From contig CAZGSV010000009.1 in assembly GCA_964528605.1 (NCBI GenBank), forward strand, positions 156-64,155: a stretch of 64,000 nucleotides of DNA, in the 5' to 3' direction. This DNA comes from an uncultured Armatimonadia bacterium (lineage in GTDB: Bacteria; Armatimonadota; Zipacnadia; CAZGSV01). A program made the translations under genes and the position numbers. The number at the start of each line of letters is the position of its first letter. Position 1 is the stretch's first letter. Of this stretch, positions 8,653 to 57,717 are shown one piece after another. The notes beneath the pieces were generated by a model, which ran no database searches, was not told the origin of the DNA, and saw only the letters and a program-made list of their open reading frames with translations.

Positions 8653-8827
8653 CGGCAGTCAGCGCAAACAGGCTATGGCGAGCATACCAGAACCGGCGTA
8701 CACGTCAACGTGCCCTCCCGCCAGGAGTTTGACTTGCCTCGCCCGCCTCGGCTACAAGGGGCCGAGAGGCGGGCACGCTGGGAGACCTGTGCTGGCATGG
8801 CGCGACAAAGAGAGGATGGGTGGCCCC

Positions 8828-15964: not shown

Positions 15965-16077
15965 GCCGCGTAACCCCTCCCCGGGCAACGCCGACCGACC
16001 GCACGCCCGAGGCTAGTAGCACAACCAATAAGTCCAGGAAGCATGATGGGCCTCCGGCGCTTCACTGCAGAGGGCGC

Positions 16078-29047: not shown

Positions 29048-31063
29048 GTGAGTGCGTTTGTTGCCGGCCAAATCATCTTCGCGGCCACCATAGCGGGGCA
29101 GCCAAGCGGCATCCCCCCGGGTGACACGCTCAGCAATTCCCTTGGCATGGAGTTCGTGCGTGTTGAGCCCGACGAGTTTCTGATGGGATGCGACGATGAG
29201 CCGTTGCCCGAGGGGCTGGGCAACGTCGCTTACCTGCCCCACGGGGACTTCGACGAGCACCCCCGGCACCGCGTGCGAATCACCCAGCCCTTCTTCATGG
29301 CCGTCTGTGAGGTCACCAACGCCCAGTACGAACAGTTCGATCCCGAACACCGCAAGTTGCGCGGCAAGATGGGCTTCTCCAAAAACGACGACGAGGCCGT
29401 GGTATTCGTCAGTTGGCACGACGCCGTGCGCTTCTGCGACTGGCTGTCAAAGAAGGAGGGCCTGCCTTATCGCCTGCCAACCGAAGCCCAATGGGAGTAC
29501 GCTTGCCGGGCCGGGACCAACACCCTTTTCAACACCGGCGACTCCTTGCCGGAGATCTACCACAAGGTGCAGGGGGAGTGCTGGTATCCCGACCCGGACC
29601 CGCGCGACCCCGGCGTGCTCTCCACATCGCATGTAGGACACACGCCCCCTAACGCGTGGGGCCTGCACGACATGCACGGCAACGTGGAGGAGTGGTGCTA
29701 CGACTGGTACGGGCCGTACGAGCCGGGCGAACAGGCGGATCCGCTCGGTCGGGCCGACGGAAAGTTCAAGGTCACTCGAGGCGGCAGCCACTCAACCTTC
29801 ATCTACTACCTCCGCTCTGCCAACCGCTCCAGCGCGCTACCTGACGACCGTACCTGGCTCATCGGCTTCCGCCTGGTTCTCGCGCCACTGCCCATCAGCA
29901 AGCCCTTCCCGCCTGCTCCGCCTACACTGTGCATGCAAGGCGTCAAGCAGGGCGTCCCGCCTGATGTCACAAAAGGCCCGGACCCCGCGCAGCCCTACTT
30001 CAAAGGACCACGCGTATACGTGAAGATCCCCCCGGACGCGAACGGGCCCCTGTTCGCGCGCCACAACCACGTTCCCAGCATTGTCGAGTGCCCCAACGGC
30101 GACTTGCTCGCCGTGTGGTACACTTGTGTGCGTGAGCCCGGACGTGAGGTGGCGCTCGCAGCCAGCCGCCTCCGCTTCGGGGAGGATGAGTGGGAACCCG
30201 CTTCCCTCTTCTGGGACGCTGCCGACCGCACCGAAGGGGCTAACGCCCTCTGGTTCGACGGCGACAAGACTATCTACAACTTCATCGGCTTCTCCGTCGC
30301 CGCGACCTGGGGCAACCTCGCCGTCGCGATGCAGACCTCCACCGATAGCGGCGCTACCTGGTCCCGCGACCGCATCATCTTGCCCGAGCACGGCCTCCGC
30401 CAGATACCGATCCCATCCGTGATCCGCACGCGCGCCGGGCAGATCATCTTGCCCTGTGATGCGGACACCGGTGAGGGCGGCACCGCTCTCTTCCTCAGCC
30501 CGGACAATGGCAACACCTGGTGCGATCCTGGGGGGACCGCTGCCGGCATTCACGCGGGGCTCGTGGAACTCAACGACGGCCGACTGATGACTCTCGGCCG
30601 CGGCAACAACATTGACGGCATGATGCCCATGAGCCTCTCGGATGACATGGGGAAAACCTGGGTCTACCGTGCCAGCCCCTTCCCTCCCATCGGCGGCGGT
30701 CAGCGTCTCGCGCTAGTCAGGTTGCAGGAAGGCCCCCTCTTCTTCGCCTCCTTCGCCAAGGAGATGCCTCTGCCCGATGGAGCCGGGGCACAGCGGCAGG
30801 TGTCCGGTCTCTTCGCCGCGGTCTCCTGCGACGATGGAGAGACCTGGCCCCTCCTGCGTGTGCTCAGCGACGGGCCTGACCGCGGGCTCGAAACATTGGA
30901 CGGCAGACCGTTTATGATGACTGCCGCGAGCGCGGAGCCCGCGGGGTACCTTACCGCCATCCAGGCGCGCAACGGGGTCGTCCACCTCATCAGCAGCCGC
31001 CAGCACTACGTTTTCAACCTCGCCTGGCTCGTCCGGACACCGACTCCGCAAAAGCAGGACTAG
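29048..31063 (+). CDS. Fusion protein: FGE-sulfatase (SUMF1/DUF323) domain plus C-terminal BNR/Asp-box sialidase-like propeller
   Basis: N-terminal half: RVTQPFFMAVCEVTNAQYEQF, WEYACRAGT, HGNVEEWCYDWY, TRGGS, R.ANR (the FGE-sulfatase fold). C-terminal half: Asp-boxes STDSGATW, SPDNGNTW, SDDMGKTW, SCDDGETW. Confidence 0.65.
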   Translation: MSAFVAGQIIFAATIAGQPSGIPPGDTLSNSLGMEFVRVEPDEFLMGCDDEPLPEGLGNVAYLPHGDFDEHPRHRVRITQPFFMAVCEVTNAQYEQFDPEHRKLRGKMGFSKNDDEAVVFVSWHDAVRFCDWLSKKEGLPYRLPTEAQWEYACRAGTNTLFNTGDSLPEIYHKVQGECWYPDPDPRDPGVLSTSHVGHTPPNAWGLHDMHGNVEEWCYDWYGPYEPGEQADPLGRADGKFKVTRGGSHSTFIYYLRSANRSSALPDDRTWLIGFRLVLAPLPISKPFPPAPPTLCMQGVKQGVPPDVTKGPDPAQPYFKGPRVYVKIPPDANGPLFARHNHVPSIVECPNGDLLAVWYTCVREPGREVALAASRLRFGEDEWEPASLFWDAADRTEGANALWFDGDKTIYNFIGFSVAATWGNLAVAMQTSTDSGATWSRDRIILPEHGLRQIPIPSVIRTRAGQIILPCDADTGEGGTALFLSPDNGNTWCDPGGTAAGIHAGLVELNDGRLMTLGRGNNIDGMMPMSLSDDMGKTWVYRASPFPPIGGGQRLALVRLQEGPLFFASFAKEMPLPDGAGAQRQVSGLFAAVSCDDGETWPLLRVLSDGPDRGLETLDGRPFMMTAASAEPAGYLTAIQARNGVVHLISSRQHYVFNLAWLVRTPTPQKQD

Positions 31064-33028: not shown

Positions 33029-33115
33029 GCCGGAGTGGCGTAATCGGCAGACGCAGAGGACTTAAAATCCTCCGCTCGCGAGGGCATGTGGGTTCGAGTC
33101 CCACCTCCGGCACCA
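33029..33115 (+). tRNA. tRNA-Leu(TAA)
   Basis: Acceptor GCCGGAG/CTCCGGC, anticodon stem GAGGA/TCCTC with loop CTTAAAA, long variable arm CGCTCGCGAGGGCAT, T-arm GTGGG-TTCGAGT-CCCAC, discriminator A, CCA. Confidence 0.85.
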
Positions 33116-33295: not shown

Positions 33296-34558
33296 TCATG
33301 GCGCCTTCGGCAGGAACGGCTCCGTGACGATCTTGAGGTACCTTGCCGGCTTCGCCGACATGATCGCCTTCTTGTTCAACTGCAAAACCCACAGCCCGCC
33401 CGGCCGCCTGTGTCGGTCGAAGGCCACTCTTGTGCCATCCGGCGAGACCGCATACCAGCCGATGTCGCCCCAGTCGGTTATCCGCAGCCACCCTCCGTCT
33501 GTCATCCGCAAAGCCCAGAGGTCATCCCGGAACGGCGAAGAGGCGCTCGGTCCCGGACGCGAGCGCTGTGTGATGACGAGCCCGCCCTCCAAGGCCAGGG
33601 CCGCTTCGAGCAAGACAGCGGCCCCGCAATCGGCCCCGCGAGCCTCATTGCGTTGCACGTCCACGACTCCGAGCCGACGCGTATGTGCCCCCGACCCGTG
33701 CAGCACCAACTCATTGATGGGCACCAGCCCGTTCAGTGAATGACACAACCCGTGCGGCAACACGTGGTCCCGCGCAAGCAACCTTCTGGCAGGCGCTGAA
33801 GGGGGCGAGACCAAGAACAGCCCTTCCTCTCGCCGGCTGCCGGAACACTCCACCCCACCCACAAGCAGTTCTCCAGAGGGCAGCCACGCCAGCCCCCAGA
33901 CGAACCCACGAAAGACGACGTCTCGATAGGCTCCGCCCTTGTCGTACAGGTCCAACTGGTTGCGGGCCGTGTCATACAACGCGAAGCCCGACCGGTCCGG
34001 GGAGGCGACCGCCCCCCACAAGGAACCCGCCGCCAACAGCGCCGTGCATCGCCCGTTCCCAACCTCGCACCGGAACACAATGCTGTCTCCCGCTCCCCTC
34101 CCCCTCAACGGGGCGACCAGGACCGCATCACCGGCCGGCGTCCAGGAGCAGTGAAGCCCCGGCCAGTATGCCGTGTTGACCGGCGCCTCGAAGCGGCGAA
34201 CGAGCGCGCCGTCGCTCGTCCGTGTCACCAGGAGTTCTCCCGCCACCAAGCGCCCCAGCCGGAACACCGCAGGCGGCTGGCCGGGTATACCGGGCAACCT
34301 GGCGGCCTGCAGGACTTCGCTCCGCCCGGCGGCGAGCCAGTGAACGGCCACCAGTTTCCCATCCGGCGACCAGGCCATCGGCGACACGTATGAGCCCTCG
34401 AGAATCTGCACCGCCCGCCCCCCCGGCTGCCTCTGCTGCACCAGCCGCCCCGGCCTCCGCGGCGGCCGATTCACATACGCCCATGCAAGCCACAGGGCAC
34501 CAACCAGAGCCGCAACTGCCACCAGCGCCACCCAGCCCCGGCTCACACGTCTCCTCAC
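33296..34558 (-). CDS. TolB-like (PD40/WD40-like) beta-propeller protein with signal anchor, paralog 1
   Basis: PD40-type SPDGKLVA / SPDGTRVAF repeats after an RR-containing TM anchor. GTG 34558 forms a GTGA overlap with the upstream paralog's stop. Confidence 0.6.
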   Translation of the reverse strand: MRRRVSRGWVALVAVAALVGALWLAWAYVNRPPRRPGRLVQQRQPGGRAVQILEGSYVSPMAWSPDGKLVAVHWLAAGRSEVLQAARLPGIPGQPPAVFRLGRLVAGELLVTRTSDGALVRRFEAPVNTAYWPGLHCSWTPAGDAVLVAPLRGRGAGDSIVFRCEVGNGRCTALLAAGSLWGAVASPDRSGFALYDTARNQLDLYDKGGAYRDVVFRGFVWGLAWLPSGELLVGGVECSGSRREEGLFLVSPPSAPARRLLARDHVLPHGLCHSLNGLVPINELVLHGSGAHTRRLGVVDVQRNEARGADCGAAVLLEAALALEGGLVITQRSRPGPSASSPFRDDLWALRMTDGGWLRITDWGDIGWYAVSPDGTRVAFDRHRRPGGLWVLQLNKKAIMSAKPARYLKIVTEPFLPKAP

Positions 34559-35877
34559 CGCGCGGCCTCCGCGGCCCTCATGTGCAGGCGCCACACGCCC
34601 CTCCCCGCCGCGCTCCCCGGCACCCCCGACCGCGCCAATGGCTCAACACTCGCCCGCCCCGCCGAGTACGGTTCCGAACGCTCAAGCCAGCCTCGGTCCG
34701 GTGTCACCACCCATACCCCCGCGGCACCCGTTCGGCCGCCCTGACTGGTCAGTGCGATCTGCTCCCCGTCCGGAGACACCGCAAAGCCGGTGGGCCGGCC
34801 CACCTCGCCGAAAGTAACGCCGAACCATCCGCCGTCACTCAGCCGCGCCAGCCACAGGTCGCGGGATGCCTCCACCCCGGTTTCGCCGAGGCACACCAGC
34901 AACCTGCCACCCAGAGCCAATTCCGCGCCCCCGATGACTCGCACGGGAACGTCCTCTGGAGGAAGAACCACGCGCACCTCCCGACGGAACACATCTATCA
35001 CGCCCGGACTCGCAACCATCTCCCCGCTCGCGTTCGCGCGCCCATCAACAAAGGGAACCAGTCCCGCCATTGACCGCGTGGCTCCCTCACGGAGCACATG
35101 TGACCGCTGCAGGAGACGTTCCGGGTTGCCGCCGCCCCGCCAAGTTGTGAGATACACACCCGGTGTCACAGGCCCCTTCCCCGACACCTGAGCGTCCACC
35201 ACGACGTGCTCCGCATCTACCCACGAGAACCCCCACACGTCTCCTTGAAAGACCGGGCTCTTGCGCTCGCCGCGCCGGTGGACCTGAAGGGCCTCGCCGC
35301 CCTGTACCAGCATCGTCCTGCTGTCTGGGGCGAACACCGCCTCCACACTCAACCCTCCCGCCACCGGACCTCTGTCGCCCGTCAGAACGTCGTAGCGAAA
35401 AGCCCTCGATGCCCGCGGCGCTTCCGCCACTCGGCAGAGCAGGTCGTCGCTTCCAGCCACCCAGAAACACTCGCTGGGCGGCCAGAATGCTGTGTTCACC
35501 GGCGCGAGCAGGCGCTTGATCACCCGGGAGTCGGCCACCCGCACGATCAGCACATCCCCCGCCGCCAGCCGACCCAGCCGGCCAAAGCCCCGATTGTCAG
35601 ACCGCGACGCCTGCCGTCCCGCAAACTCCCGCAGCCAGGCTGTTGCTGGCGGTACCCACCCCACGGCCAAGAACCTCCCGTCTGGAGAAAACGTCAGCGC
35701 CTTCAGCCCGTCGCCGGAAAGAACCTGGAAGATTCCACCCCCACCCGGGAATCGGGCAGAGGCACGCGGCAGCCGCATCCGCCATTCCCGCCCCGCAGCC
35801 AAGGATGCGAAGACTAACACTGCTACCGTTCCGGCCACCAGCCGGCGACGCAACCGGCGTCGTGTCGTCGGCTGCAC
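34555..35877 (-). CDS. TolB-like beta-propeller protein, paralog 2
   Basis: SPDGRFLAV / SPDGEQIAL repeats. Likely GTG start at 35877 sharing one nt with the upstream gene's TAG; it gives the signal anchor RRRLRRRLVAGTVAVLVFASLAAG. Confidence 0.55.
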   Translation of the reverse strand: MQPTTRRRLRRRLVAGTVAVLVFASLAAGREWRMRLPRASARFPGGGGIFQVLSGDGLKALTFSPDGRFLAVGWVPPATAWLREFAGRQASRSDNRGFGRLGRLAAGDVLIVRVADSRVIKRLLAPVNTAFWPPSECFWVAGSDDLLCRVAEAPRASRAFRYDVLTGDRGPVAGGLSVEAVFAPDSRTMLVQGGEALQVHRRGERKSPVFQGDVWGFSWVDAEHVVVDAQVSGKGPVTPGVYLTTWRGGGNPERLLQRSHVLREGATRSMAGLVPFVDGRANASGEMVASPGVIDVFRREVRVVLPPEDVPVRVIGGAELALGGRLLVCLGETGVEASRDLWLARLSDGGWFGVTFGEVGRPTGFAVSPDGEQIALTSQGGRTGAAGVWVVTPDRGWLERSEPYSAGRASVEPLARSGVPGSAAGRGVWRLHMRAAEAAR

Positions 35878-38027
35878 TACCTCTCTCGCGCCCTCCGCGT
35901 GCGCTTCCCCTTCTTCGCCCATGCGCCGGGTCCCTCCTGGATGAACCCATAGTAGCGCCCCATCCAGTAAGGCAGCAAGAAGAAAGTCGCGTCCTCCTCG
36001 CTCGCGCCGCTCCCGCCACCGTCAAGTTCGTAGGGATTGCCGTTCCACTTGAACATCGGCCGCTCGTCCGCCGGCAGCGCCTCGGTCGCCTGCGGATGCC
36101 GGAAGCGGTCGGCGTGCGGGTCCAGCGGCAGGTCCGCCCGCAGGCTGTTCCTCACGGCCCAGTAGCGCAAGTCCATGGGTATCTCGCGCAGCGTCCGCAC
36201 CGCGCCCTCGATGTCGCACGGGTCCCCCGTCACCGCTCCGTAGATGAAGTTGAACCAGGGGCAGCGCTCCGGCCGCTCGATCGCCCACGACCGCCGCATG
36301 CTCATGTCGAGCATCGCCCTAAGGTCCGGGTCCCTCTCGTACTTGAGCAGCGGGTAGTAGGCGGTGAACGCTAGTTCGTCGTCCGAGTGATTGATGGACC
36401 CGGGCCTCAGCACCTTCTGGTCAATCACGTTGAGGCCGTAGTGGTGCTTCTTGATCAGTTCCAGGTAGGCGCGCTGGTACTTCTCCTCGCCCGTCATGTA
36501 GTAGGCGACCTTCAGGTGCGACAGCACCTCCAGCGCGTTGAGACCCTTCTGCTCCGGCCAGTCGTAGTTCAGCCGCTCGGGATTCCAGAAGCCCCAGGTG
36601 GTCGGCTCGCCGTCCACGTCAATGAGCAGGTAGCCGTTGGCCATTATGTAGTCGGTCATCCTCCGCACCACCCGCCGGAGGCGCCCTTTCTCGCGCTCGT
36701 CGGCGACCAGATCGTAGTAGATCGAGTAGGCGAAGTAGTGGCCGTCAATCTCGTCGGAACTGGTGTCCGCCTTCCATTCCCACTTGCCGTCCGGCGAGTC
36801 GTACCATTCCCCCCCCGACTTCTCCACGCCCTTCTCCCCCTTGCGCACGAGGGCGCGCGCCACCAGCCCGGGTACCGAGGTCTTCTCCGCCAGCATGATG
36901 AGCGCGTTCAGCGTCTTGCGCGCCAAGCGCCGCCCCTCTTCGTCTCCCGTCGCCGCATACCGATAGCACTCCGCCGCGCAGTACAGCGCCGACCACAGGC
37001 CGTCGTTGTCGCTCGCTTCGTAGGTGACCTCGGCGAAGTTGTCGGCATCCTTGAAGGAGGAGACAGTCACGAAGCCGTAGCGATTGTGACGCGCCTGCAC
37101 TTGCGTCTCAAAGATGAGCGCCTTCTCCTCCAGCGTCATCAGGCGCTGCTCGATCCTGCTCAGGCCCTCCGGCGTTCCCAGCCAAGCCGTCCCCTCCGGC
37201 CCCACCGCGATCGCCTGCACCGACAGGGCCGGCAGCCAGCGCTGCGCCGAGTAATAGTGCCACTGCCCACGCTCGAGTTTGGCCGCGCCCGTGCGCCCTC
37301 CGAACCAGCGCTCGCCGTTCGGCCCCTTCGCCATCACGCGCACCTGCAACAGCGGCAGCCCTTGCTCCCCCCTCAAGGAATACCAGCCCTTGCCGCAGTC
37401 GAAGATGTTGCCGCCGATCGCATGCCCGATCCACAAATGACCAACACCGTCCGCCATCAAGCAATAGACGTGCCGGTTGAGCAGCCCACTACCTCCATCC
37501 CCCATCAGGACGTGCTCCCACTGCCCGTCCCCCAGCGCGAAGAGGCCGTCGAGTGTTCCCAGCCAGAGCGTGCCCGCGCACCAGGCAAGCGAGGTCGGTC
37601 TCGCGCCCTCGGGCAGCGCAATGCGCGGCGCACCCCGCGCACCGGCCTGCCACACGGCAGCGCGACCAACCGCCCACACTTCGCCAGGCGCAGCCTCAGC
37701 AAGGGCAACTGCGCCGGCGCCCACTCGCGACCACTTGCCTCTCTCCAGCACGCGCAACCCGCCTTCGCTAGCGGCCCACACGCGCCCCCTCGTGTCCGCC
37801 AGCAAAGCCCTTACCGCCGAACGCGCCAACCCGCGCGCACCCACCCTTGCGAACCTCCCCCTGTTCAACACCGCGAGCCCCTTGTCCGTGCCGGCCCAGA
37901 CGCGTTCCTTCGCGTCCACCGCCAGCGCCAGCACGTTCTCGCTGGGCAGCCCCTGATCCCGGCCAAAGAACGCGCGAAACTCCTGCGGGTACGGGCCTGT
38001 GCTGAGGCGATGCGTAGCCTGGGACAT
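35877..38027 (-). CDS. Two-component-regulator-propeller (Reg_prop/Y_Y_Y-like) beta-propeller protein with a roughly 400-aa C-terminal domain of unknown function
   Basis: N-terminal repeated V.AL..D..G.VW.GT..GL blades. The C-terminal half is rich in W/Y/D (GEWYDSPDGKWEWKAD..., WGFWNPERLNYDWPEQKGLNALE) with no family I can name. Confidence 0.5.
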   Translation of the reverse strand: MSQATHRLSTGPYPQEFRAFFGRDQGLPSENVLALAVDAKERVWAGTDKGLAVLNRGRFARVGARGLARSAVRALLADTRGRVWAASEGGLRVLERGKWSRVGAGAVALAEAAPGEVWAVGRAAVWQAGARGAPRIALPEGARPTSLAWCAGTLWLGTLDGLFALGDGQWEHVLMGDGGSGLLNRHVYCLMADGVGHLWIGHAIGGNIFDCGKGWYSLRGEQGLPLLQVRVMAKGPNGERWFGGRTGAAKLERGQWHYYSAQRWLPALSVQAIAVGPEGTAWLGTPEGLSRIEQRLMTLEEKALIFETQVQARHNRYGFVTVSSFKDADNFAEVTYEASDNDGLWSALYCAAECYRYAATGDEEGRRLARKTLNALIMLAEKTSVPGLVARALVRKGEKGVEKSGGEWYDSPDGKWEWKADTSSDEIDGHYFAYSIYYDLVADEREKGRLRRVVRRMTDYIMANGYLLIDVDGEPTTWGFWNPERLNYDWPEQKGLNALEVLSHLKVAYYMTGEEKYQRAYLELIKKHHYGLNVIDQKVLRPGSINHSDDELAFTAYYPLLKYERDPDLRAMLDMSMRRSWAIERPERCPWFNFIYGAVTGDPCDIEGAVRTLREIPMDLRYWAVRNSLRADLPLDPHADRFRHPQATEALPADERPMFKWNGNPYELDGGGSGASEEDATFFLLPYWMGRYYGFIQEGPGAWAKKGKRTRRARER

Positions 38028-38078
38028 GGCGACCTCCTAAAGTGGCGCTAAGCGTGCAGGGAATCTAAGCGAGCCCGG

Positions 38079-40271
38079 CTACGCTTGTCGAGCGGCCTGC
38101 TGATGCCTCGGCTGTTCGGTGGGCAACTCGACGTAGAAAGTGGACCCCCGGCCCACTTCGCTCTCCGCCCAGATGCGCCCGCGGTGCCGTTCCACAATGC
38201 CGTAACTCACCGAGAGCCCAAGCCCCGTGCCTCGCTCGCCCCGAGTGGAGACAAACGGATGGAAGATCTTGTCCAGCATATCAGGCGGAATCCCGCAGCC
38301 GGTATCTTCGACCTCGACCAGCAGCCGCCCCTGGTTCCTGAGCGTGCGGATCGTGAGCGTGCCTCCATCCGGCATCGCCAGACCCGCGTTCACGAACAGG
38401 TTCAGGAAGACCTGCACCAGTTGATTGGGGTCACCGATAATCTGGGGCACGGCGGTCTCGAACTCCGTCACCATCTTGATGCCGCGGATAGAGGGGTGCG
38501 TGCGCGCCAGGCTGATGGTGCGCTGCAGCACATTGTGAATGTCGGTGCGCACCATTTCGGGCACGTTCTGCCGGGCGAAATCAAGCAGCCCGCGCACTAT
38601 CTCCTTGCAGCGCATGACCGCCTCTTCAATCCCGCCCATCCACTCGTCCGCCCGCTCCTCGCGCGGCAGCACGCGCCGAATCCTCTGCGCCGTAATCAAA
38701 ATCGCGCCGAGTGGATTGTTGATCTCGTGCGCCACCCCCGCCGCTAGTTCGCCAATGGCCGCCAGTTTCTCCGACTGGTACAACTGCCTCTGCGCGTCCT
38801 CCAGGTCCCGATACGCCTGGCGCAAGCGATCGTAAAGCCGCGCGTTCTCCACCGCCACCGACAACTGGTTCCCCAGCGTCGCCAGCAGCGCCACATCCGC
38901 CGGCGACAACAAATCCTCCGAGCGCTTGTCACCCACGAGCACGAACCCGCTCAGCCCCTCCTTGCTTCGCAGCGGCACCGCCACCTGCGCCTGCAACTCC
39001 TGCATGCGCCGCTGCGCCGCCACTAACAGTCTCTTGTCCCCAGCGCTCAGGTTAAGAGCCTTCAGCATCAGCACAATCTCATCGCGCACCAGCGGCTCCT
39101 GCATCTTGCTCAGAGCCCTGACCAGCCAGTCGCCCTGCGCAATCTGCTCGGCCTCGCTCCCGTCCGGATACCGCGCGTTGGCCACATAACGCCCGTTGTC
39201 GCTCAGGTAGATGAAACCGCGCGCCACGCCCAGCGCCCGCCGCAGCGTCTCCAGCGTATACTCGAGCAATTCGTTGATCTCCAGGAACGACACCACCGTG
39301 CCGCTCAAATCACGCAGCATCTGCTGTGCCTCGTATTCCTCCTTGAAGAAGCGACGCTCCACCAACCTCTGCAAGCGCTTCTGCAGAGGCTGGAAGGCCA
39401 AGGCCAGGCCGAAGGCCATGATAGCCAGCAGATAGTAGGGCACGGGGTCCCTCACGCCGGCCCTGACCCCCTGCATCAGCAAGAGCAACACCAGGGCGTA
39501 AACGCCCCCTACGCCCGCGGCCACCACCGAGTACCACGCCCCCCGCCGGATCGCCACGCTGATGTTCATCAGGCGGTAGCGCACAATGGTGTAGGCAATA
39601 ACCAGCACGTAGAGAATCTGCATCACGTGGCCGATCGGATAGATGGTCACCACGCGGTGCACCAGCAGGAAGTTCGGAATGCCCCCCAGCAGCGCAATCA
39701 CGATGGCGATAATCAGGTAGCGCAGCCGGTTCCGCTCCACCGCCTCCGACGCCCGCACATACCGGTAGAAAAGCGCCCCTATGCCCAAGCACATGTAGAA
39801 GAAGAAAAAGTTGTCGAAGACGCTGCTCACCGTTGATGTCCGAGGCACCCACCCCCCGTAGACTGGGTTCCAGGGCACCCACTGCAGTTGGGCGATGAAA
39901 ACCCCCCGGATGCTGTACCACATGAACGCCGCCGAGATCATGTAGCCCGCGTGCGCCACCGAGTACAGCCAACGCCGCCGCACCCCGCTCACCGCGAGCA
40001 TGAAGTGATACGACAGCGGCGCCAAGAACAGCAGCCCCAGGTGCAGGCAGTTGTTCCACATCAGCGCCTGCCGGTAGCCCTCGCCCGTGTTGGGCACGTA
40101 GTACATCATGAAAAAACCCGTGTTCCAGATGGCCAGGGCCAGGCACACCAGCCCGAACAACTGATTGGCCTTGCCCCGCGGATTGCGCAGCACCACGAAA
40201 CCCGCCAGGCATAAGTTCGCCAGCCCCGCCAACAGAGGCGGGAAGTTGAAGATGTTGATGTTGATGTTCAC
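38079..40271 (-). CDS. Sensor histidine kinase: N-terminal 7TM-type membrane sensor, GAF, HisKA, HATPase_c
   Basis: Seven TM helices at the N-terminus, a GAF-like middle, H-box AAGVAHEINNPLGAI, and G-boxes GTGLGLSVSYGIVERHRGRIWAESEVGRGSTFYVELP. No response regulator is adjacent. Confidence 0.8.
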   Translation of the reverse strand: MNININIFNFPPLLAGLANLCLAGFVVLRNPRGKANQLFGLVCLALAIWNTGFFMMYYVPNTGEGYRQALMWNNCLHLGLLFLAPLSYHFMLAVSGVRRRWLYSVAHAGYMISAAFMWYSIRGVFIAQLQWVPWNPVYGGWVPRTSTVSSVFDNFFFFYMCLGIGALFYRYVRASEAVERNRLRYLIIAIVIALLGGIPNFLLVHRVVTIYPIGHVMQILYVLVIAYTIVRYRLMNISVAIRRGAWYSVVAAGVGGVYALVLLLLMQGVRAGVRDPVPYYLLAIMAFGLALAFQPLQKRLQRLVERRFFKEEYEAQQMLRDLSGTVVSFLEINELLEYTLETLRRALGVARGFIYLSDNGRYVANARYPDGSEAEQIAQGDWLVRALSKMQEPLVRDEIVLMLKALNLSAGDKRLLVAAQRRMQELQAQVAVPLRSKEGLSGFVLVGDKRSEDLLSPADVALLATLGNQLSVAVENARLYDRLRQAYRDLEDAQRQLYQSEKLAAIGELAAGVAHEINNPLGAILITAQRIRRVLPREERADEWMGGIEEAVMRCKEIVRGLLDFARQNVPEMVRTDIHNVLQRTISLARTHPSIRGIKMVTEFETAVPQIIGDPNQLVQVFLNLFVNAGLAMPDGGTLTIRTLRNQGRLLVEVEDTGCGIPPDMLDKIFHPFVSTRGERGTGLGLSVSYGIVERHRGRIWAESEVGRGSTFYVELPTEQPRHQQAARQA

Positions 40272-40313
40272 GCTGGATCATCCCGCCCGCGGATACCCGC
40301 GGCCTGCACGCTT

Positions 40314-42653
40314 CTAGTCTTCGAAGGCGCCCACTACCAGGGTAGCGTTCTTCCCCCCGAAGCCGAAGGAGTTGCAGAGAGCGTTGCGTACGCTCATCTC
40401 CCGACCCACGTTGGGCACGTAGTCCAGGTCGCACTCGGGGTCCGGGTGCTCGTAGTTGATCGTGGGGTGGACAAAGCGGTCGCGGATGGATAGCAGGCAG
40501 GCCGCCAGTTCGATGGGGCCCGAGGCGCCGATGCTGTGGCCGATCAGCCCCTTGGTCGAGTTCACCGGCACGCGGTAGGCGTGCTCCCCCAACACGCTCT
40601 TGATGATCATCGTCTCCGTCTTGTCGTTAAGCGGCGTGCTGCTGCCATGCGCGTTGACGTACTCCACTTCCTGCGCCGTCAGCCGAGCGTCGGCCAACGC
40701 CTCAGTCATCGCCCGCCCCGCCTCCGCGCCGTCCGGCGCCGGCCGCACCATGTGGAAAGCGTCGCCCGTAGCCGAGTAACCCAGCACCTCGCCCAAAATG
40801 GTCGCCCCCCGGGTTATGGCGTGGCCCAACTCCTCCAGCACCAACACGGCCGCGCCCTCGGACATCACAAACCCGTCCCGGTCGCGGTCGAAGGGCCGAC
40901 ACGCCTGCGCGGGCGCGTCATTGCGCGTGGAAAGAGCGCGGATGGCGTTGAAGGAGGCCACGATGATCGGCCGCAGGGGAGCCTCCGCACCCCCCGCCAG
41001 CGCCGCGTCTATCTCCCCGCTCTGAATGGCGCGGAAGCCCCAGCCGATCGCGTCCGCGCCCGCCGCGCAGCCAGTGGAGATGGTCACCGTCGGCCCCTTG
41101 CTGCCCAATTGCATCGAGACTTCGCTCGACACCGCGCCGCTGAAGACCACGATCGCCAGGAAGGGACTCACCTTCTCCGAACCTTCCCCCAGAAAGATCT
41201 TGTGCTGCTCCTCGGCGAACTCAATGCCGCCCACGCCGGTGCCGATGTAGACCCCCACGCGCTCCGCGTCTTCCTGGCTCATATCCAGGCCCGCGCCGTC
41301 AACCGCCAAGCGCGAGGCCGCCACCGCCAGGTGCGTCGAGCGCCCCGCCCGCTTCACCGTCTTGGCGTCGAGAAAGTCGTGCGGGTCGAAGCCGGGCACC
41401 TCGCCGCCAAAACGCGTCGGCAGGCCAGTGGCGTCGAAGAGCGTGAAAGGACGGATCCCCGACTCGCCCCGCTTCGCCGCCTCCCAAAACACCTCGGTCC
41501 CGATGCCCAACGGAGTCACCATGCCAATGCCGGTCACCACCACGCGGCGCTTGGGCGCTGCTTCCGCCCGTGGCCGCAGCACGTACAGCGCCACCTTTTC
41601 CGTCCCCTCGCGCGCCAAGTCTTCGTAGGCGCTTTGCGCCCGCCGCAGCAACTCGTCAACCTCGGCCTGCCGCGCAGGCATCACCGCCACCCCCGCCTGC
41701 GCCCGCAGCCGATCCGCCACCCGAGTCACCGAAAGCGTCTCGGCCACGCGGCCCACGATCCTCTCCGCCGCCCGCATGCCCTCCCGGTATTCTACTCCCG
41801 GCAAGATGAGAAACAGCCTGTTCTCCTCGAGGCGCCCGACGCTCTCCCCGGTCCGCGCGCCCGCGTGCACCAGGCGCACCACTTCCTGCACCAGCACCTC
41901 AGCCGCGGTCGCGCCGCGTTCGCCCCGGAGCGCCTCCCATCCGGGCAGCCCCACGCACACCACGCACACCACGCCGTCGCGACGTCGCGCGCGCAGGATC
42001 TCCTCTTGCAGACGCACCTCCAGCGCTTCCTTGGTCAACACCCCGGGCGCCCCCTCTTCCACCGCCCAGCCCGCGCGCTCCTCCAGCAGTGAGGCCAAGG
42101 CCACGCTCCGAGTCTCCAAGCCCCGATAGCGCTCCACAATCCCAACCAGGTCGCTCGCCACCGAGCGTATCGCGCGACCCGCGACCAGCAGTTCCTCTTC
42201 CTTAAGGACCGGCAGGTGAGCCACCTCGGCCAGCACTTCCTCCGCCGAGAGCCCCAATTCCATCGTGACCTTGCGTAGCGCGGTCGTGTCCGTATCCGCC
42301 GACCCGATTCCCCCCCCGACCACCGCGGCCACGGGCACACCCGCGGCCACCAAGGGCACCGCGCACACCAGCAGCCCCCCATGGCACCGCCATAGCCCCA
42401 CTCCTTCCGCGGCTACCGTCTCGCTGAAGCACTCCCTGGCGTAGCACTCCCGACAGCGGCTGATACCCAGCACCGTGCTGCGGATGAGCCGGCAGAATCC
42501 ACTCAGTTGCGTCTCCCCCGCCAGCAAGTCACCGTCCGGCCCCACCAGCAGCGGCACCACCCCCAACAGGTCGCGGCCAACCCGTTGCAGGCGCTCCCAC
42601 TCACCCACCACCCCCATCAAGCCGGCCACATTGCGCCTGCTTGGGCCGCTCAT
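40314..42653 (-). CDS. Tri-domain fusion: PocR-like sensor, degenerate GGDEF-like domain, full-length beta-ketoacyl-ACP synthase II (FabF-type KAS)
   Basis: PocR motifs FCRLIRSTVLGISRCRECYARECFSE and CHGGLLVCAVPL. The GGDEF-like region has LEENR in place of GGEEF. The KAS domain starts at KRRVVVTGIGMVTPLG and carries the Cys in TISTGCAAGADAIG, His in NAHGSSTPLNDK and His in GHSIGASG, ending CNSFGFGGKNATLV. It is a single uninterrupted 779-aa ORF. Confidence 0.7.
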   Translation of the reverse strand: MSGPSRRNVAGLMGVVGEWERLQRVGRDLLGVVPLLVGPDGDLLAGETQLSGFCRLIRSTVLGISRCRECYARECFSETVAAEGVGLWRCHGGLLVCAVPLVAAGVPVAAVVGGGIGSADTDTTALRKVTMELGLSAEEVLAEVAHLPVLKEEELLVAGRAIRSVASDLVGIVERYRGLETRSVALASLLEERAGWAVEEGAPGVLTKEALEVRLQEEILRARRRDGVVCVVCVGLPGWEALRGERGATAAEVLVQEVVRLVHAGARTGESVGRLEENRLFLILPGVEYREGMRAAERIVGRVAETLSVTRVADRLRAQAGVAVMPARQAEVDELLRRAQSAYEDLAREGTEKVALYVLRPRAEAAPKRRVVVTGIGMVTPLGIGTEVFWEAAKRGESGIRPFTLFDATGLPTRFGGEVPGFDPHDFLDAKTVKRAGRSTHLAVAASRLAVDGAGLDMSQEDAERVGVYIGTGVGGIEFAEEQHKIFLGEGSEKVSPFLAIVVFSGAVSSEVSMQLGSKGPTVTISTGCAAGADAIGWGFRAIQSGEIDAALAGGAEAPLRPIIVASFNAIRALSTRNDAPAQACRPFDRDRDGFVMSEGAAVLVLEELGHAITRGATILGEVLGYSATGDAFHMVRPAPDGAEAGRAMTEALADARLTAQEVEYVNAHGSSTPLNDKTETMIIKSVLGEHAYRVPVNSTKGLIGHSIGASGPIELAACLLSIRDRFVHPTINYEHPDPECDLDYVPNVGREMSVRNALCNSFGFGGKNATLVVGAFED

Positions 42654-42668
42654 CGTCCCGCCCCTGCA

Positions 42669-43127
42669 TCACACCTCATGCTCGGCACGCGCCTCCTGAG
42701 CCATCAGACGCTCCACCCCAGCCAGGAACCTCCGCGCCATTTTACCCACTACCAGCCGGTGCACCACATTCCGCGCCAGCCAATCGCCACCCGGAAAGCG
42801 GGGTGCATACCGATGCACTATCGAAACCCGCGTCCCCTGCCCCTCCGGCCTCACCCTCCACACGGTCACCATCCCCCTCAGTGGCCCCTTCAGTTGCACG
42901 AACTCCACCCGGTCGTTCCCCACCACCTTCCCTAATGACACCCAACGCATGGGCAACCCGAAGACCCGCCCCTGGCGCTCCACCACCACCCCGTCCTCCC
43001 GCTCCTCTAGCACACGCGAACCGGAGTAATCATCCGTCAGCCGATCGTACTCCCCCAGATTGCTCACCACCGCGAACACACGCTCCGGCGACGCCTCCAC
43101 TACCGCGGCATCTTCTACCTCTACCAT
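42669..43127 (-). CDS. SRPBCC-superfamily protein (polyketide cyclase/dehydrase-like, START/Bet v1 fold)
   Basis: 152 aa with the Polyketide_cyc2-like pattern (VEASPERVFAVVSNLGEYDRL...WRVRPEGQGTRVS). ATG 43127 has GGAGG upstream. It sits 16 nt upstream of the KAS-fusion gene. Confidence 0.6.
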   Translation of the reverse strand: MVEVEDAAVVEASPERVFAVVSNLGEYDRLTDDYSGSRVLEEREDGVVVERQGRVFGLPMRWVSLGKVVGNDRVEFVQLKGPLRGMVTVWRVRPEGQGTRVSIVHRYAPRFPGGDWLARNVVHRLVVGKMARRFLAGVERLMAQEARAEHEV

Positions 43128-43181
43128 AGTGCCTCCCGCCGGCGGCGCCTCCTAGCCGCCGCTCCGCGATTCTAGCCCGAC

Positions 43182-44213
43182 CTAGAAACCAATCACAGCG
43201 CTCACATAGTGGGTGCCCGACTCCGGCTGAGGACCAACCGCCGGGAACATGTCCTCCGCCGACTCCTTGTTCAAGTCCTTGGCGTAGGCATAGTCCAGTC
43301 TGAAGTTGCGCGCCCGATAACCCACCCCCGCCGTCCACGCCCCCCCGTAGGAGCCCGCGCGCACGCACAGGCCCTCGCTCAACGACCGCTCTACACCCCA
43401 GTACGGGCGCGAGTCCGTGATCTCCCACCCCGCATCCCGGTTCTCATAGGCGAGCCGCGCATACTCGCCCGCCACCACCGTCTTCTCGTCCGGCCGGTAG
43501 GCCAGCCCGCCCTTGATTATCGTCGTGCGGTAACTGCCCCCGGGGCTGAACGTCGGCGGTGGCGGCACCGGCAGCAGCCAGTAGTTACTCTCCACCTCGT
43601 CCCAATACGAGTACACCGCCCCAGCCGACAGACGGTCAGAGAGCCATTGAAAGACCCCAGCCTCCACCCCGCCGCGCCCCTGACCTCGGGTCCGGTAGGG
43701 GGCAGCGTCCACGTGCACACTGGACAGCGCGCCCGTCAGACCCACCGAAGTGCGCCGCCCTACCCGCAGCCCCCCCGCCAGCAGCACCGCGTCATAAGAG
43801 ACGGACTCCACCGCGCCCGTCAGCGTGTTCAGGTAGGAGTTCGACGCCAGCGAAGTCTTGCGCACCTCAAACGCCGCCTGTTCCGACAGTATCTGCGCCA
43901 GCGAGTACGAGCGCACGGTGTACTCCGGGCCGCTGCCTTGGTCTATGGTCCCCATGCCCACGATGCCGGCCTCCACTGTACTGCGCGGCACCCACACCAG
44001 GCTGGCGGCATTGCGGATGTTGCCTTCATCCGCGACCGCGGTGCACACGCCCCCCATGCCCAGCAGGCGGATGCCCCCGCCTTGCGCTATCGTCAACGCC
44101 GACAGCACGCTCCCTCTGCCGGGAAGCTGCGGAGCCTGCGCCCACGCGCACGAAGCCCCCAACCCCACCGCGATGACCAGTACCAAAACAGTCAACCGAG
44201 CCGATTGTCTCAC
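43182..44213 (-). CDS. Putative outer-membrane beta-barrel protein
   Basis: GTG 44213 with GGAGG 10 nt upstream. Signal peptide VRQSARLTVLVLVIAVGLGASCAWAQAP, alternating amphipathic strands, and a C-terminal ...YVSAVIGF with terminal Phe. Confidence 0.45.
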   Translation of the reverse strand: MRQSARLTVLVLVIAVGLGASCAWAQAPQLPGRGSVLSALTIAQGGGIRLLGMGGVCTAVADEGNIRNAASLVWVPRSTVEAGIVGMGTIDQGSGPEYTVRSYSLAQILSEQAAFEVRKTSLASNSYLNTLTGAVESVSYDAVLLAGGLRVGRRTSVGLTGALSSVHVDAAPYRTRGQGRGGVEAGVFQWLSDRLSAGAVYSYWDEVESNYWLLPVPPPPTFSPGGSYRTTIIKGGLAYRPDEKTVVAGEYARLAYENRDAGWEITDSRPYWGVERSLSEGLCVRAGSYGGAWTAGVGYRARNFRLDYAYAKDLNKESAEDMFPAVGPQPESGTHYVSAVIGF

Positions 44214-44383: not shown

Positions 44384-45475
44384 GTGAACGCCCGCGAGCG
44401 CTTCCTCGAGACCGTGCTCTTCGGCCGGCCCGACCGAGGCTTCCGCTGGGAGAGCCTCGGCTTCTGGGGCGAGACCGTCCGCGCTTGGCGTCAACGGGGC
44501 CTCCCCGAGGACCAGAGCCCCGAGGCCTACTTCGAGTTCGACCCCTTCGCGGACCTGCCGGTCGCCAGTGGCTTCACGGGCACTCCCTATTGCCCCCCCT
44601 TCGAACACCAAGTGCTGGCGGAGGACGATTTCTCCATCACCTACCGCAGTAACCAGGGCATACTCCTGCGCGAGCGCAAGGAGAAGGCGGAATTGTCTAT
44701 GCCACAATTCCTCGAGTTTCCGGTAAAAGCACCGGAGGATTTCGAGGCCCTGTTGTGGCGCCTAGACCCGAGTGACCCCGACCGGCTCCCGCAGGACTTC
44801 GACGCCCGTGCCGCGCAGTGGCGCCAGCGTGACTACCCCCTCTTCCTGCGCATCTGCGGCGCCTTCGGCCACCCCCGCAACCTGCTCGGCCTCGAGCGCC
44901 TCCTCGTCACCTACTACGACGACCCGCAGTTCGTCCACCGCATCCTCGACCATTGGGCGGGCTTCTACGAGGCCCTCTTCGACCGGGTCCTCTCCCAGGT
45001 CACCGTGGACTTGCTCATGATCTGGGAGGATATGTGCTACAAGGCCGGCCCGCTCATCGGGCCCGCGCTCTTCCGCGAGTTCATGCTGCCCTACTACCAC
45101 CGAGTGATAGACTGCGCGCGCCAGTTCGGAGTGCCCATCATTATGGTGGACACCGACGGCAACTTCTGGGACCTGCTCCCGCTCTTCCTGGAGGCCGGCG
45201 TCAATATGATGATGCCCTTCGAAATCGCCGCCTCCATGGAGCCGCTCGAAGTGCGCAAGCAGGTGGGCAAGCGCCTTGCCATCCTCGGCGGCATTGACAA
45301 GCGCGCACTCCGCGCCGATAAGCGCGCCGTCGAGGAAGAGGTCGAGCGCAAGGTGCCGCAGTTGGTCGCCGAGGGCGGCTTCATCCCTTGCCTCGACCAC
45401 ACCGCGCCGCCCGACATCTCGCTCGACAACTTCGCCCACCTCGTCCGCTGCCTCCGCCGCTATACCGAACCGTGA
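44384..45475 (+). CDS. Uroporphyrinogen-decarboxylase (URO-D)-like family protein (MtaA/CmuA-type)
   Basis: 363 aa with a URO-D-fold C-terminal pattern (MVDTDGNFWDLLPLFLEAGVNMMMPFE, LAILGGID...FIPCLDHTAP). Confidence 0.55.
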   Translation: MNARERFLETVLFGRPDRGFRWESLGFWGETVRAWRQRGLPEDQSPEAYFEFDPFADLPVASGFTGTPYCPPFEHQVLAEDDFSITYRSNQGILLRERKEKAELSMPQFLEFPVKAPEDFEALLWRLDPSDPDRLPQDFDARAAQWRQRDYPLFLRICGAFGHPRNLLGLERLLVTYYDDPQFVHRILDHWAGFYEALFDRVLSQVTVDLLMIWEDMCYKAGPLIGPALFREFMLPYYHRVIDCARQFGVPIIMVDTDGNFWDLLPLFLEAGVNMMMPFEIAASMEPLEVRKQVGKRLAILGGIDKRALRADKRAVEEEVERKVPQLVAEGGFIPCLDHTAPPDISLDNFAHLVRCLRRYTEP

Positions 45476-45720
45476 TCACCGCTGCGGTGGCGCCGGCCAT
45501 CCGCGGACTGCGGCCCATCGGCCGGCCCACCCTATTGGTCGCCCGCCTCGAAGTCCAGCCAGTTCCCTCCCGACCGAACGCGTCCGCGGCTGCCACCTTG
45601 CGGGTGGCCTGTAGCAACCCGATCTTACCTGGCCCCCTCAAAAGGCTCGCCTCCGCCAGGTCGCAGGCGGGCCCCGACTGAGTCGGCGCGCCTACCACCC
45701 GGTACGCGAGTGCGGAGCAA

Positions 45721-45839
45721 CAACCCCGCATCGGGTTGTAGGGACGGCATCTCATGCCGTCCGCAGAGACGCAGGCTTCTGTGTCCGTACCCCCCATGGG
45801 CGGAGAACCGCGGAAAATGGGGACTGTAACCATTTTCCT
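45721..45839. terminator. Hairpin cluster between convergent genes (candidate bidirectional terminators)
   Basis: CAACCC-CGCATC-GGGTTG (45721-38); GGACGGCAT-CTC-ATGCCGTCC (45742-62); GGAAAATGG-GGACTGTAA-CCATTTTCC (45813-39), with a further GGAAAATGG...CCCCTTTTTCC at 45871-45895. Confidence 0.4.
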
Positions 45840-45903
45840 GTGCCACCAAGCGTCGCCGACACGCCCGCCGGAAAATGGTTGCTGTCCCCTTTTTCCAACA
45901 ACA

Positions 45904-46437
45904 TCAACTCGCCTCGCCGACATTGCGCTTGTGCAGGAAGTAGACCCAGTCAACCTCGACCCCCAACGCTGCAATCCGCCGCGCCGCCTCGAGGAGGCTG
46001 TCGTAAGCACCGACCCTGCCCGCAAACCAATCGTGCGTCTTCTCCAAGCCGTAAAGGCTCAGTTGGAAGCGCTCGAGGCCCTGATCCCGTAGGGCTCGCA
46101 CCATCTCAGGATAAGCAGGATCGGCCCCCACCCTCTGCCCGTTCGTCGCCATCGTGCGCACGTTCACCGCCTGCCGATTCAAAGCCGACAACAGTCCGTG
46201 AATCTCCACAACGTCCGGATGATCCATCGGCTCATACGAGAGCGAGGGGTGGATGTGTTTGTAGAACGCGGGCGCCTTCTCGTTCTCCGCGCGAACCGCG
46301 CTCACCGCGCCTTCAATCTGCTCCAGGGAAAGAAGCACCGGTTCCGACAGGTCGGCGGCCGGCGCGCAGTGCTTGCAGCGACTTTTGCAGCCTGCCCCTA
46401 CTATGCTAAGCCCTACGTGCTCAAATAGCGGTTCCAC
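45904..46437 (-). CDS. Small 4Fe-4S radical-SAM-like protein (CX3CX2C), 177 aa
   Basis: N-terminal GAGCKSRCKHCAP is a CX3CX2C cluster motif. It is short for a radical-SAM enzyme, closer in size to NrdG/QueE-like activases. GTG start. Confidence 0.4.
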   Translation of the reverse strand: MEPLFEHVGLSIVGAGCKSRCKHCAPAADLSEPVLLSLEQIEGAVSAVRAENEKAPAFYKHIHPSLSYEPMDHPDVVEIHGLLSALNRQAVNVRTMATNGQRVGADPAYPEMVRALRDQGLERFQLSLYGLEKTHDWFAGRVGAYDSLLEAARRIAALGVEVDWVYFLHKRNVGEAS

Positions 46438-46586
46438 GGCTTCTCCCCTCGCAGACGGCCTTAGAGGCCATTATAAGCGAACGGTCGCTGCGGGCGTCGG
46501 CCGTTCTCGAAAACATCACAGAAAACAGGTCGAAGAGGCGGGTGCCGACTGCCGCCTTCAGCCGGCTTCCGGCAGACGCTTGCCGC

Positions 46587-57544: not shown

Positions 57545-57717
57545 CACCCCCTCTGGCCCCGTACTCAACCCAAAACCCCTTCGCGGCGTTGTATATGGAA
57601 AGGTACCTACGGGCCGGGCTACCGCGTCCGGAGGCGGAGACTCCGGGTTGGCAAGGGTGATAAGGGAACTCCAAGAAATGGCTGGTTGGGGCAGGTGCCG
57701 AGGATCAGGGACGGGAA

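Follow-up and report, generated by a model that had tools for sequence, protein, structure and literature searches.

Two described fatty-acid signalling systems come closest in function to the locus considered here. In DSF/BDSF signalling (diffusible signal factor and its Burkholderia counterpart), the PAS-GGDEF-EAL protein RpfR binds the fatty-acid signal and regulates the synthase RpfF (PMC6361424). In the Phc system of Ralstonia, the methyltransferase PhcB makes methyl 3-hydroxymyristate, which is sensed by the histidine kinase PhcS (PMC8578825). The locus itself is a run of seven genes in a 64-kb stretch of DNA from an uncultured Armatimonadia bacterium (contig CAZGSV010000009.1), the whole of which is referred to as the window; the genes are lettered A to G in the order of their transcription on the minus strand. 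Gene C encodes, in one chain, a PocR sensory domain, a degenerate GGDEF domain and a FabF-type beta-ketoacyl-acyl carrier protein (ACP) synthase II, further abbreviated as KAS. We are not aware of any other condensing enzyme from the fatty-acid pathway that has signal-sensing domains of its own.

The locus is read here as a conserved signal-gated lipid cassette, formed by genes A to D, with a lineage-specific group E-F-G located beside it. The probability of this reading is estimated at about 0.45. Genes A to D are apparently a rare and undescribed cassette which recurs in unrelated uncultured bacteria, and the recurrence of the neighbourhood in eight other lineages supports a functional link between the four genes. 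An earlier, sequence-only reading of the same DNA had joined all seven genes into one system and had not recognised the gene order as a described one. The latter point agrees with the literature that could be searched in full text, where no description of the PocR-GGDEF-KAS fusion or of its cassette was found. All the components belong to known domain families; it is the fusion and the conserved cassette that appear to be undescribed.

The fusion protein and its recurrent neighbourhood

The active-site motif of the GGDEF domain in C reads EENRL instead of GG[DE]EF, and the domain therefore cannot be a cyclase. The corresponding motif in the other seven GGDEF-bearing fusions reads GDSEF, RGDKF, SGNEF, DDTRF, RGNVF, EGNIF and FEDQF, which means that GG[DE]EF is lost in all eight. 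An I-site-like Rxx[D/E] motif, located five residues upstream, is kept in the same eight proteins. Its arginine (R267 in C) is invariant, and its acidic residue is D in four of the fusions and E in the other four, the window having RTGE. In the PocR domain, the residues W19, C54, C67, Y71, C90, G93 and L94 are invariant in eight fusions.

The C-terminal part of the protein scores 529.3 bits against the fabF model TIGR03150 over residues 369-774, above the equivalog cutoff of 493.75. Its motifs STGC, NAHGSST, STKGLIGH and NSFGFGG align with C163, H303, K335/H340 and F400 of Escherichia coli FabF (EcFabF), and the catalytic residues (the Cys-His-His triad and the Lys) as well as the Gly-rich loop are kept in nine of nine fusion proteins. 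The solved structures nearest to this domain are genuine FabFs (1e5m, 3o04, 4ls5 and 1j3n), which are placed ahead of the actinorhodin ketosynthase (KS). Judged by these residues, the KAS enzyme of the fusions looks active, whereas the GGDEF domain does not.

The KAS domains of the fusions share 48-67% identity among themselves and 39-45% with EcFabF, while the N-terminal halves share only 19-35%; such a distribution indicates that the fusion is old and has been kept. The KAS domains also group together, and 16 positions invariant in the family differ from EcFabF. These include a His-to-Asp change five residues past the catalytic Cys and an Ile-to-Phe change at a position which presumably lines the bottom of the acyl pocket. 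Such invariant substitutions may result in an altered chain-length preference. Close relatives of C differ from it at a few positions, and on one contig the gene is called with a shorter start.

The rarity of the architecture follows from an exhaustive phmmer search, in which the N-terminal 368 amino acids (aa) of C were compared with 1.84 billion representative proteins and only 18 proteins were found at E<=1e-10. The best matches are proteins of 764-800 aa with the PocR-GGDEF-KAS order, together with one 614-aa PocR-KAS protein; the complete architecture of C is present in P0001-4, P0007, P0009 and P0011. A word-indexed search with the N-terminal 400 aa gave no matches, and a profile of eight N-terminal sequences retrieved only generic GGDEF proteins there. 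Likewise, the scan of metagenome contigs with a three-sequence alignment added no fusions to the list, its matches being PocR or GGDEF proteins of unrelated kinds. Two of the relatives are named, from metagenome-assembled genomes of Candidatus Poribacteria and Candidatus Desantisbacteria, and the annotation of both says no more than beta-ketoacyl-ACP synthase II. Since databases label the fusions in this plain way, their architecture is invisible to annotation-based surveys.

The neighbourhood of the fusion was compared in nine loci, the window and eight other divergent lineages (L005-L011 and L012/13/14), whose gene orders are given in Table 1. Homology to the neighbours in these loci was confirmed by tblastn for four of the seven window genes, namely A, B, C and D. 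Full-length homologues of C, with 38-47% identity, are present in L005-L011, and the closest non-conspecific locus is L005, at 47-57% identity. The association of KAS, SRPBCC, histidine-kinase and propeller genes, raised by the sequence-only reading, is found in the eight other lineages as the combination A-D, with E, F and G absent.

The SRPBCC gene adjoins the fusion gene in six of the eight other lineages. Homologues of B were detected there by tblastn in L005, L006, L009 (weak), L010, L011 and L012/13/14. The B protein itself matches Polyketide_cyc at 58 bits and Polyketide_cyc2 at 44 bits, and 1t17 and 2d4r are its nearest solved structures.

The A protein begins with the signal peptide MRQSARLTVLVLVIAVGLGASCAWA and ends in ...VIGF, with a terminal Phe. 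It has no direct Pfam or PDB sequence match. Its placement comes from the 356-aa protein in the matching position of L006, to which it is 31% identical (tblastn, E 4e-33), and from the profile of these two proteins, which matches the Toluene_X proteins of L010, L011 and L012 with 90.9% probability (hhalign, E 1e-6, 283 columns). A GxRxLGMGG...N motif at the N-terminus is common to A and the Toluene_X proteins of the related cassettes, and A is ~90 aa shorter than the Toluene_X (PF03349) proteins. The earlier assignment of A to the outer membrane is partly upheld by the signal peptide, the C-terminal Phe and the profile match, though not by Pfam. Counting the window, an outer-membrane channel of the Toluene_X or A-like type occurs in five lineages, the others being L006, L010, L011 and L012. 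A 365-aa neighbour of the fusion in L009 was considered as a further homologue of A and is instead a BamB/PQQ-like propeller.

In the D protein, residues 10-266 include six or more hydrophobic segments, and the GAF, HisKA and HATPase domains follow. The protein is 57% identical over its full length to the kinase encoded after the fusion in L005, and this orthologue matches HisKA_7TM (PF16927) at 53 bits against a cutoff of 28.6. The seven-transmembrane (7TM)-GAF part of D, residues 3-487, can be aligned with partners that match PF16927, the E-values ranging from 1e-38 to 1e-52. Homologues of this part were found by tblastn in L007, L008 (two copies) and L012/13, and the L010 contig holds the 7TM start only. 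A HisKA_7TM(-GAF) protein is encoded at most two genes from the fusion in five of the six lineages whose contig extends that way. What is exchanged between lineages is the output: a kinase in L005, none in L007, and HD-GYP or GGDEF in L008 and L012/13, the L010 gene being cut at the contig end. Such a constant 7TM-GAF module with varied output is a natural experiment for ligand assignment in HisKA_7TM, a sensor family which is poorly understood.

The remaining neighbours are enzymes and parts of cyclic di-GMP (c-di-GMP) signalling. The PF04199 cyclase is present in L005, L006, L009, L011 and L012/13, and ICMT methyltransferases are present in L010, L011 and L012-14. A triple fusion, L007:85-2154, joins a PilZ domain, which is a receptor of c-di-GMP, to a LuxD-like Acyl_transf_2 domain (98.9 bits) and to a class I S-adenosylmethionine (SAM) methyltransferase. 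It is located two genes upstream of the PocR-degenerate GGDEF-KAS gene, with the 7TM-GAF gene between them, and its composition hints that an acyl chain is released and methylated under the control of c-di-GMP. In four lineages, c-di-GMP parts stand beside the fusion: a GGDEF domain with intact motif, HD-GYP proteins and the PilZ domain.

Proposed function and competing explanations

Read from these features, the product, the ligands, the gating and the direction of transport may be pictured as follows. The KAS would condense an acyl-ACP with malonyl-ACP, and the module of PocR and degenerate GGDEF would gate this reaction on sensing a small hydrophobic ligand, c-di-GMP or both. The SRPBCC protein, cytoplasmic and encoded next to the fusion, would take up the hydrophobic product or help to release it. 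In other lineages, the PF04199 hydrolase/cyclase or the LuxD-like thioesterase, together with the ICMT-type or class I methyltransferases, would process the product further; the cassette of the window is the minimal version, without the genes for these steps. The FadL-like outer-membrane protein would let the molecule cross the outer membrane. Finally, the 7TM-GAF receptor would sense the molecule, or the membrane state made by it, and would signal via the histidine kinase in the window and via c-di-GMP enzymes elsewhere.

A signal-regulated lipid-like product had already been proposed in the sequence-only reading and is judged a reasonable hypothesis. The stronger claim, that A-D represent an unrecognised class of lipid-signal system, is tentative and on balance doubtful. 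Such a class would comprise a FabF-derived synthase gated allosterically by the sensor fused to it, a diffusible acyl-derived molecule (methyl-esterified in some lineages), a FadL-like channel, and a 7TM-GAF receptor plugged into phosphorelay or c-di-GMP turnover. If the PocR and degenerate GGDEF domains do gate FabF, they would provide a direct post-translational link from second-messenger or small-molecule sensing to the synthesis of lipids or acyl metabolites. We know of no signalling chemistry in the uncultured lineages of the cassette (Poribacteria, Desantisbacteria and the high-GC bacterium of the window).

Several observations weigh against a signal-gated lipid cassette. The I-site-like motif of the window is of the RxxE and not the RxxD type, which makes c-di-GMP binding uncertain here. 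The KAS scores as an ordinary FabF and could simply be the elongation KAS of the cell. FadL proteins are classically importers, and uptake fits the channel as well as export does. D taken alone does not match PF16927 HisKA_7TM, even at E<=1. Apart from the LuxD-like domain of L007, no ACP, acyltransferase, chain-length factor (CLF) or thioesterase is encoded in the nine loci, and the cyclase and methyltransferase genes of other cassettes are missing from the window. Most of the comparison contigs are 6-14 kb long, and the absences are partly due to truncation.

The alternative that survives best, although it is unlikely, is membrane-lipid homeostasis. In this scenario, the fusion is a regulated elongation FabF which tunes the acyl-chain length or unsaturation of bulk phospholipids, and no dedicated small molecule is made. 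The 7TM-GAF protein would sense the state of the bilayer in a DesK-like manner, and the SRPBCC, FadL-like and PEMT/ICMT proteins would traffic or modify membrane lipids. The passing of the fabF equivalog cutoff and the housekeeping nature of the nearest FabF structures are consistent with such a role, but no fab or acpP gene adjoins the fusion in any of the nine loci, and the fusion KAS domains form a group with invariant substitutions beside the active-site Cys. Further points in its favour are that the window cassette lacks ACP, CLF and thioesterase and that the ICMT matches also fit PEMT, a phospholipid methyltransferase family; the PF04199 hydrolases, the LuxD-like acyl-ACP-releasing domain and the carboxyl-type methyltransferases point instead to the release and tailoring of an acyl product. 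The 7TM sensors are well placed for reading membrane properties, and E. coli FabF sets the thermal control of fatty-acid composition. An inner-membrane role, however, needs no outer-membrane channel for hydrophobic compounds.

A considerably less probable explanation is uptake and assimilation. Here the FadL-like channel would import a fatty acid or hydrocarbon derivative, the SRPBCC protein would shuttle it, PocR would sense it and the KAS would elongate it into lipids, while the kinase reports its availability. The members of the FadL/TodX family are importers of hydrophobic compounds, such channels occur in the five lineages named above, and the Pfam annotation of PF10114 predicts simple hydrocarbon derivatives as the ligands of PocR. 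Nevertheless, acyl-ACP synthetase, acyl-CoA ligase and beta-oxidation genes are found in none of the loci, and a role in catabolism or assimilation does not readily account for the methyltransferases and the c-di-GMP enzymes.

Layout of the locus and the genes beside the cassette

The seven minus-strand genes of the sequence-only reading were all found as co-directional open reading frames (ORFs), which fill window 33296-44213 and show coding-type codon bias (GC content at third codon positions, GC3, 0.75-0.87). A clear GGAGG-type Shine-Dalgarno sequence precedes the chosen start in A, B, E, F and G, and a weak one precedes C and D. The gaps from A to E measure 54, 15, 42 and 51 nt. The values reported earlier were 55, 16, 43 and 51 nt, the first three each one too large; both overlaps reported with them are present, the 1-nt TAG/GTG overlap (TAGTG) at the E/F junction and the 4-nt GTGA overlap at F/G. 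The domain searches bear out the earlier calls of B as an SRPBCC protein, C as a sensor-KAS fusion with PocR and degenerate GGDEF domains, D as a 7TM-GAF kinase and E as a Reg_prop propeller. When three REC domains were used as tblastn queries, no receiver domain was found in the cluster or in the rest of the 64-kb window, in line with the remark that the operon has no response regulator.

Terminator-like hairpins occur at chance level (5 against 5.3 expected), and none lies inside any gap. Co-transcription of the seven genes is plausible. The D-E gap contains a sigma-70-like match, which is a possible separate start for E-F-G; it is a weak match, 2 such sites having been found where 0.8 would be expected.

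Table 1. Features of the seven-gene locus in the window and gene orders of the related loci (OMP, outer-membrane protein; TM, transmembrane)
Feature	Position	Strand	Basis
A, short FadL/Toluene_X-like OMP, 343 aa, core cassette member	43182..44213	-	profile comparison, L006 homologue
B, SRPBCC/START-type hydrophobic-ligand-binding protein, Coq10/RatA-like, 152 aa, core member	42669..43127	-	Pfam
C, PocR-degenerate GGDEF-FabF-type beta-ketoacyl-ACP synthase II fusion, 779 aa, cassette-defining	40314..42653	-	Pfam, NCBIfam
C, PocR sensory domain, aa 18-170	42144..42602	-	PF10114, 73.7 bits (gathering cutoff 23.9)
C, degenerate GGDEF domain, aa 207-351	41601..42035	-	PF00990, 46.5 bits
C, KAS II domain, aa 369-776	40326..41549	-	ketoacyl-synt N and C domains; alignment to E. 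coli FabF
D, 7TM-GAF-HisKA-HATPase sensor kinase, 730 aa, orphan, core cassette member	38079..40271	-	Pfam, hydrophobic segments
Sigma-70-like promoter match in D-E gap	38062..38091	-	TCGACA-18-TAGATT, 9/12 positions
E, Reg_prop beta-propeller with C-terminal helical-hairpin domain, 716 aa, outside conserved cassette	35877..38027	-	Reg_prop, 56.6 bits
F, membrane-anchored paralogue of G, 440 aa, strain-variable	34555..35877	-	GC3 0.75
G, membrane-anchored, weak PD40/WD40 blade motifs, 420 aa, lineage-specific	33296..34558	-	TM segment aa 9-27
L005 order: PF04199 cyclase, SRPBCC, fusion, HisKA_7TM-GAF histidine kinase
L006 order: GAF-GGDEF (intact GGDEF motif), A-like OMP, cyclase, SRPBCC, fusion
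L007 order: PilZ/LuxD-like acyltransferase/methyltransferase, 7TM-GAF without output, fusion
L008 order: fusion, HEAT, 7TM-GAF-HD-GYP, 7TM-GAF-GAF-GGDEF
L009 order: BamB-like propeller, cyclase, weak SRPBCC, fusion
L010 order: Toluene_X, SRPBCC, two ICMT, fusion, 7TM (contig ends)
L011 order: cyclase, SRPBCC, fusion, (further genes), Toluene_X, ICMT
L012/13 order: Toluene_X, cyclase, PocR-KAS, SRPBCC, ICMT, SRPBCC, ICMT, 7TM-GAF-HD-GYP, HDOD-HD-GYP

Reg_prop repeats are present in the E protein, and its propeller fold resembles that of the periplasmic domains in the Bacteroides hybrid two-component systems (HTCS). No signal peptide or transmembrane segment is predicted in it, and it looks cytoplasmic, which speaks against the three periplasmic propellers and the envelope apparatus of the sequence-only reading. 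The same reading had pointed to the C-terminal domain of E as a subject for structure comparison. A good model was obtained from the multiple sequence alignment, in which residues 296-700 form a confidently modelled helical-hairpin domain with the invariant acidic motifs SDNDGLW, DTSSDE, NHSDDEL and NSHRAD. The fold searches gave overwhelmingly propeller matches, and the helical domain received no assignment from them or from the profile searches, where only isolated weak matches to Heparinase II/III_N and GH88 appeared; it has no PDB or Pfam sequence match. The domain may be an undescribed glycan-active one of the alpha/alpha-toroid type. The family of E comprises at least 1200 proteins, with named members from Armatimonadota, Poribacteria, Paenibacillus and others. 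Its homologues adjoin GH5 and DUF4838 glycosidases (L004) or a UDP-glucose dehydrogenase and a GH127-like protein (L030). No kinase or KAS was found beside the E homologues, and four loci from the scan of the genome collection contain none of the other cluster genes.

Genes F and G encode paralogues (30% identity, E 4e-36), both with an N-terminal hydrophobic anchor. Their earlier description as TolB-like propellers is only weakly reflected in the searches: PD40 scores 18.0 bits in F and 17.4 in G, below the cutoff of 20.9, and the PDB matches cover a single WD40 blade. In three metagenome contigs from the same species, L032-L034, the identity to window 45919-35877, from the URO-D-like gene through E, is 98%. 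Window 35876-34592, corresponding exactly to gene F, is missing from their alignment, which continues from 34591 at only 90-94% identity; the break maps to L032:10311-10347. As F is skipped in contigs which are otherwise 98% identical, it is strain-variable. In the conspecific strains, G has 90-91% aa identity, compared with 96-99.6% for A-E. The boundary between E and G, located next to tRNA-Leu and tRNA-Cys, resembles a recombination seam or an indel hotspot. No homologues of E, F or G were found by tblastn in any fusion locus outside this species, and in L005 an unrelated lipoprotein gene follows the kinase, where the window has E. E-F-G are lineage-specific riders, translationally coupled to each other and probably unrelated to the function of the cassette.

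Propellers of other kinds were observed just upstream of the cassette in two lineages, a BamB/PQQ-like lipoprotein at L009:1747-2844 and BNR-OmpA and NHL proteins at L012:3910-6523. They echo the downstream propellers of the window and have no sequence relationship to them.

It is very improbable that all seven genes form one system, in which an envelope apparatus with three periplasmic propellers would be coupled to a product of lipid or polyketide type: the common strand, the gaps of at most 54 nt without a predicted terminator, the A-E order kept in the three conspecific contigs and the non-homologous propellers (BamB-like, NHL, BNR-OmpA) near the cassette in L009 and L012 would fit it, but E, F and G are absent from eight of eight other fusion lineages, the gene after the kinase in L005 is unrelated, the E family is widespread and occurs with sugar-metabolism genes, E has no export signal, F is missing from the three nearly identical strains, and a promoter-like site lies in the D-E gap.

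The run is flanked by a divergent URO-D-like gene (44384-45475, plus strand) and by tRNA-Leu (33029-33115, plus strand). At window 45376-46440, a radical-SAM gene that forms a single 353-aa ORF in the conspecific contig L033 is broken up into two ORFs which overlap (45904-46437 and 45381-46025); indels and a divergent patch are seen near 45,880-45,915. The split form is a pseudogene or else results from a difference in assembly. Window 57664-61562, at a distance of about 16 kb from the cassette, encodes an 808-aa HEAT-repeat protein and, after it, a 503-aa protein of the HD-GYP type (HD_5), in which no domain is assigned to the N-terminal 240 aa. This pair is a possible distant partner of the cassette, comparable to the HEAT and 7TM-GAF-HD-GYP proteins encoded after the fusion in L008. 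Other genes of the window include a single 671-aa ORF joining an FGE-sulfatase domain to a BNR_2 sialidase-like propeller (29048-31063), a stand-alone BNR_2 protein (7648-8658), a 1218-aa ORF with strong coding bias and no Pfam match (8576-12232) and a NACHT-HEAT STAND-type NTPase of 791 aa (13637-16012). PADLOC gave no match to an anti-phage defence system, and Rfam gave tRNAs only, which leaves no candidate for riboswitch control.

Comparison with described systems

The enzyme with the most direct likeness to C is FabF. The C-terminal 410 aa of C exceed the TIGR03150 equivalog cutoff, contain the Cys-His-His triad and are closest to solved FabFs. In contrast, FabF is a stand-alone protein of ~410 aa encoded with fab/acpP genes, whereas C carries the 368-aa sensory module, and the fusions are never found in a fab/acpP cluster in the nine loci and form a sequence group of their own with the 16 invariant substitutions. 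A type II polyketide synthase was rejected, as the KAS is single, no second KS-like gene, CLF or ACP is encoded in the nine loci, and FabF structures outrank the actinorhodin KS.

The D protein resembles PrsK (TIGR02916) of the XrtA/PEP-CTERM system in its layout of multiple transmembrane segments, GAF, HisKA and HATPase, and residues 137-717 can be aligned with it. The score of 115 bits stays well below the cutoff of 300, and no exosortase, PEP-CTERM protein or PrsR sigma-54 regulator was found in the window ORFs scanned; D was not accepted as PrsK.

PelD and PopA are degenerate-GGDEF receptors of c-di-GMP. The fusions resemble them in the combination of a dead active site with a retained I-site-type motif, which is RxxD in four of the eight fusions and RxxE in the other four. 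C differs in its putative RxxE I-site and in the fusion of the domain to a metabolic enzyme.

In the Phc system, methylation turns a fatty-acyl intermediate into a diffusible lipid signal, and a membrane histidine kinase senses it. Those cassette versions which include ICMT-type genes, or LuxD-like and methyltransferase genes, may be analogous. The differences are that the window has no methyltransferase, that PhcB and PhcS are not homologous to the cassette proteins, and that Phc includes neither a KAS nor an outer-membrane channel.

The DSF/BDSF systems differ from the cassette in every protein, and the likeness would be functional only. Crotonase-family RpfF, RpfB, REC-HD-GYP RpfG, RpfC and RpfR are all absent from the seven genes as well as from the related loci; the synthase is here a KAS II, and the receptor is here a 7TM-GAF protein. 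The shared plan consists of an enzyme of the fatty-acid pathway, a membrane or PAS-type sensor and a c-di-GMP output, which in the cassette is represented by the HD-GYP and GGDEF partners in L008 and L012/13. In BDSF signalling a sensor module controls the synthase directly, and in C, where it would do the same, this sensor is fused to the synthase itself.

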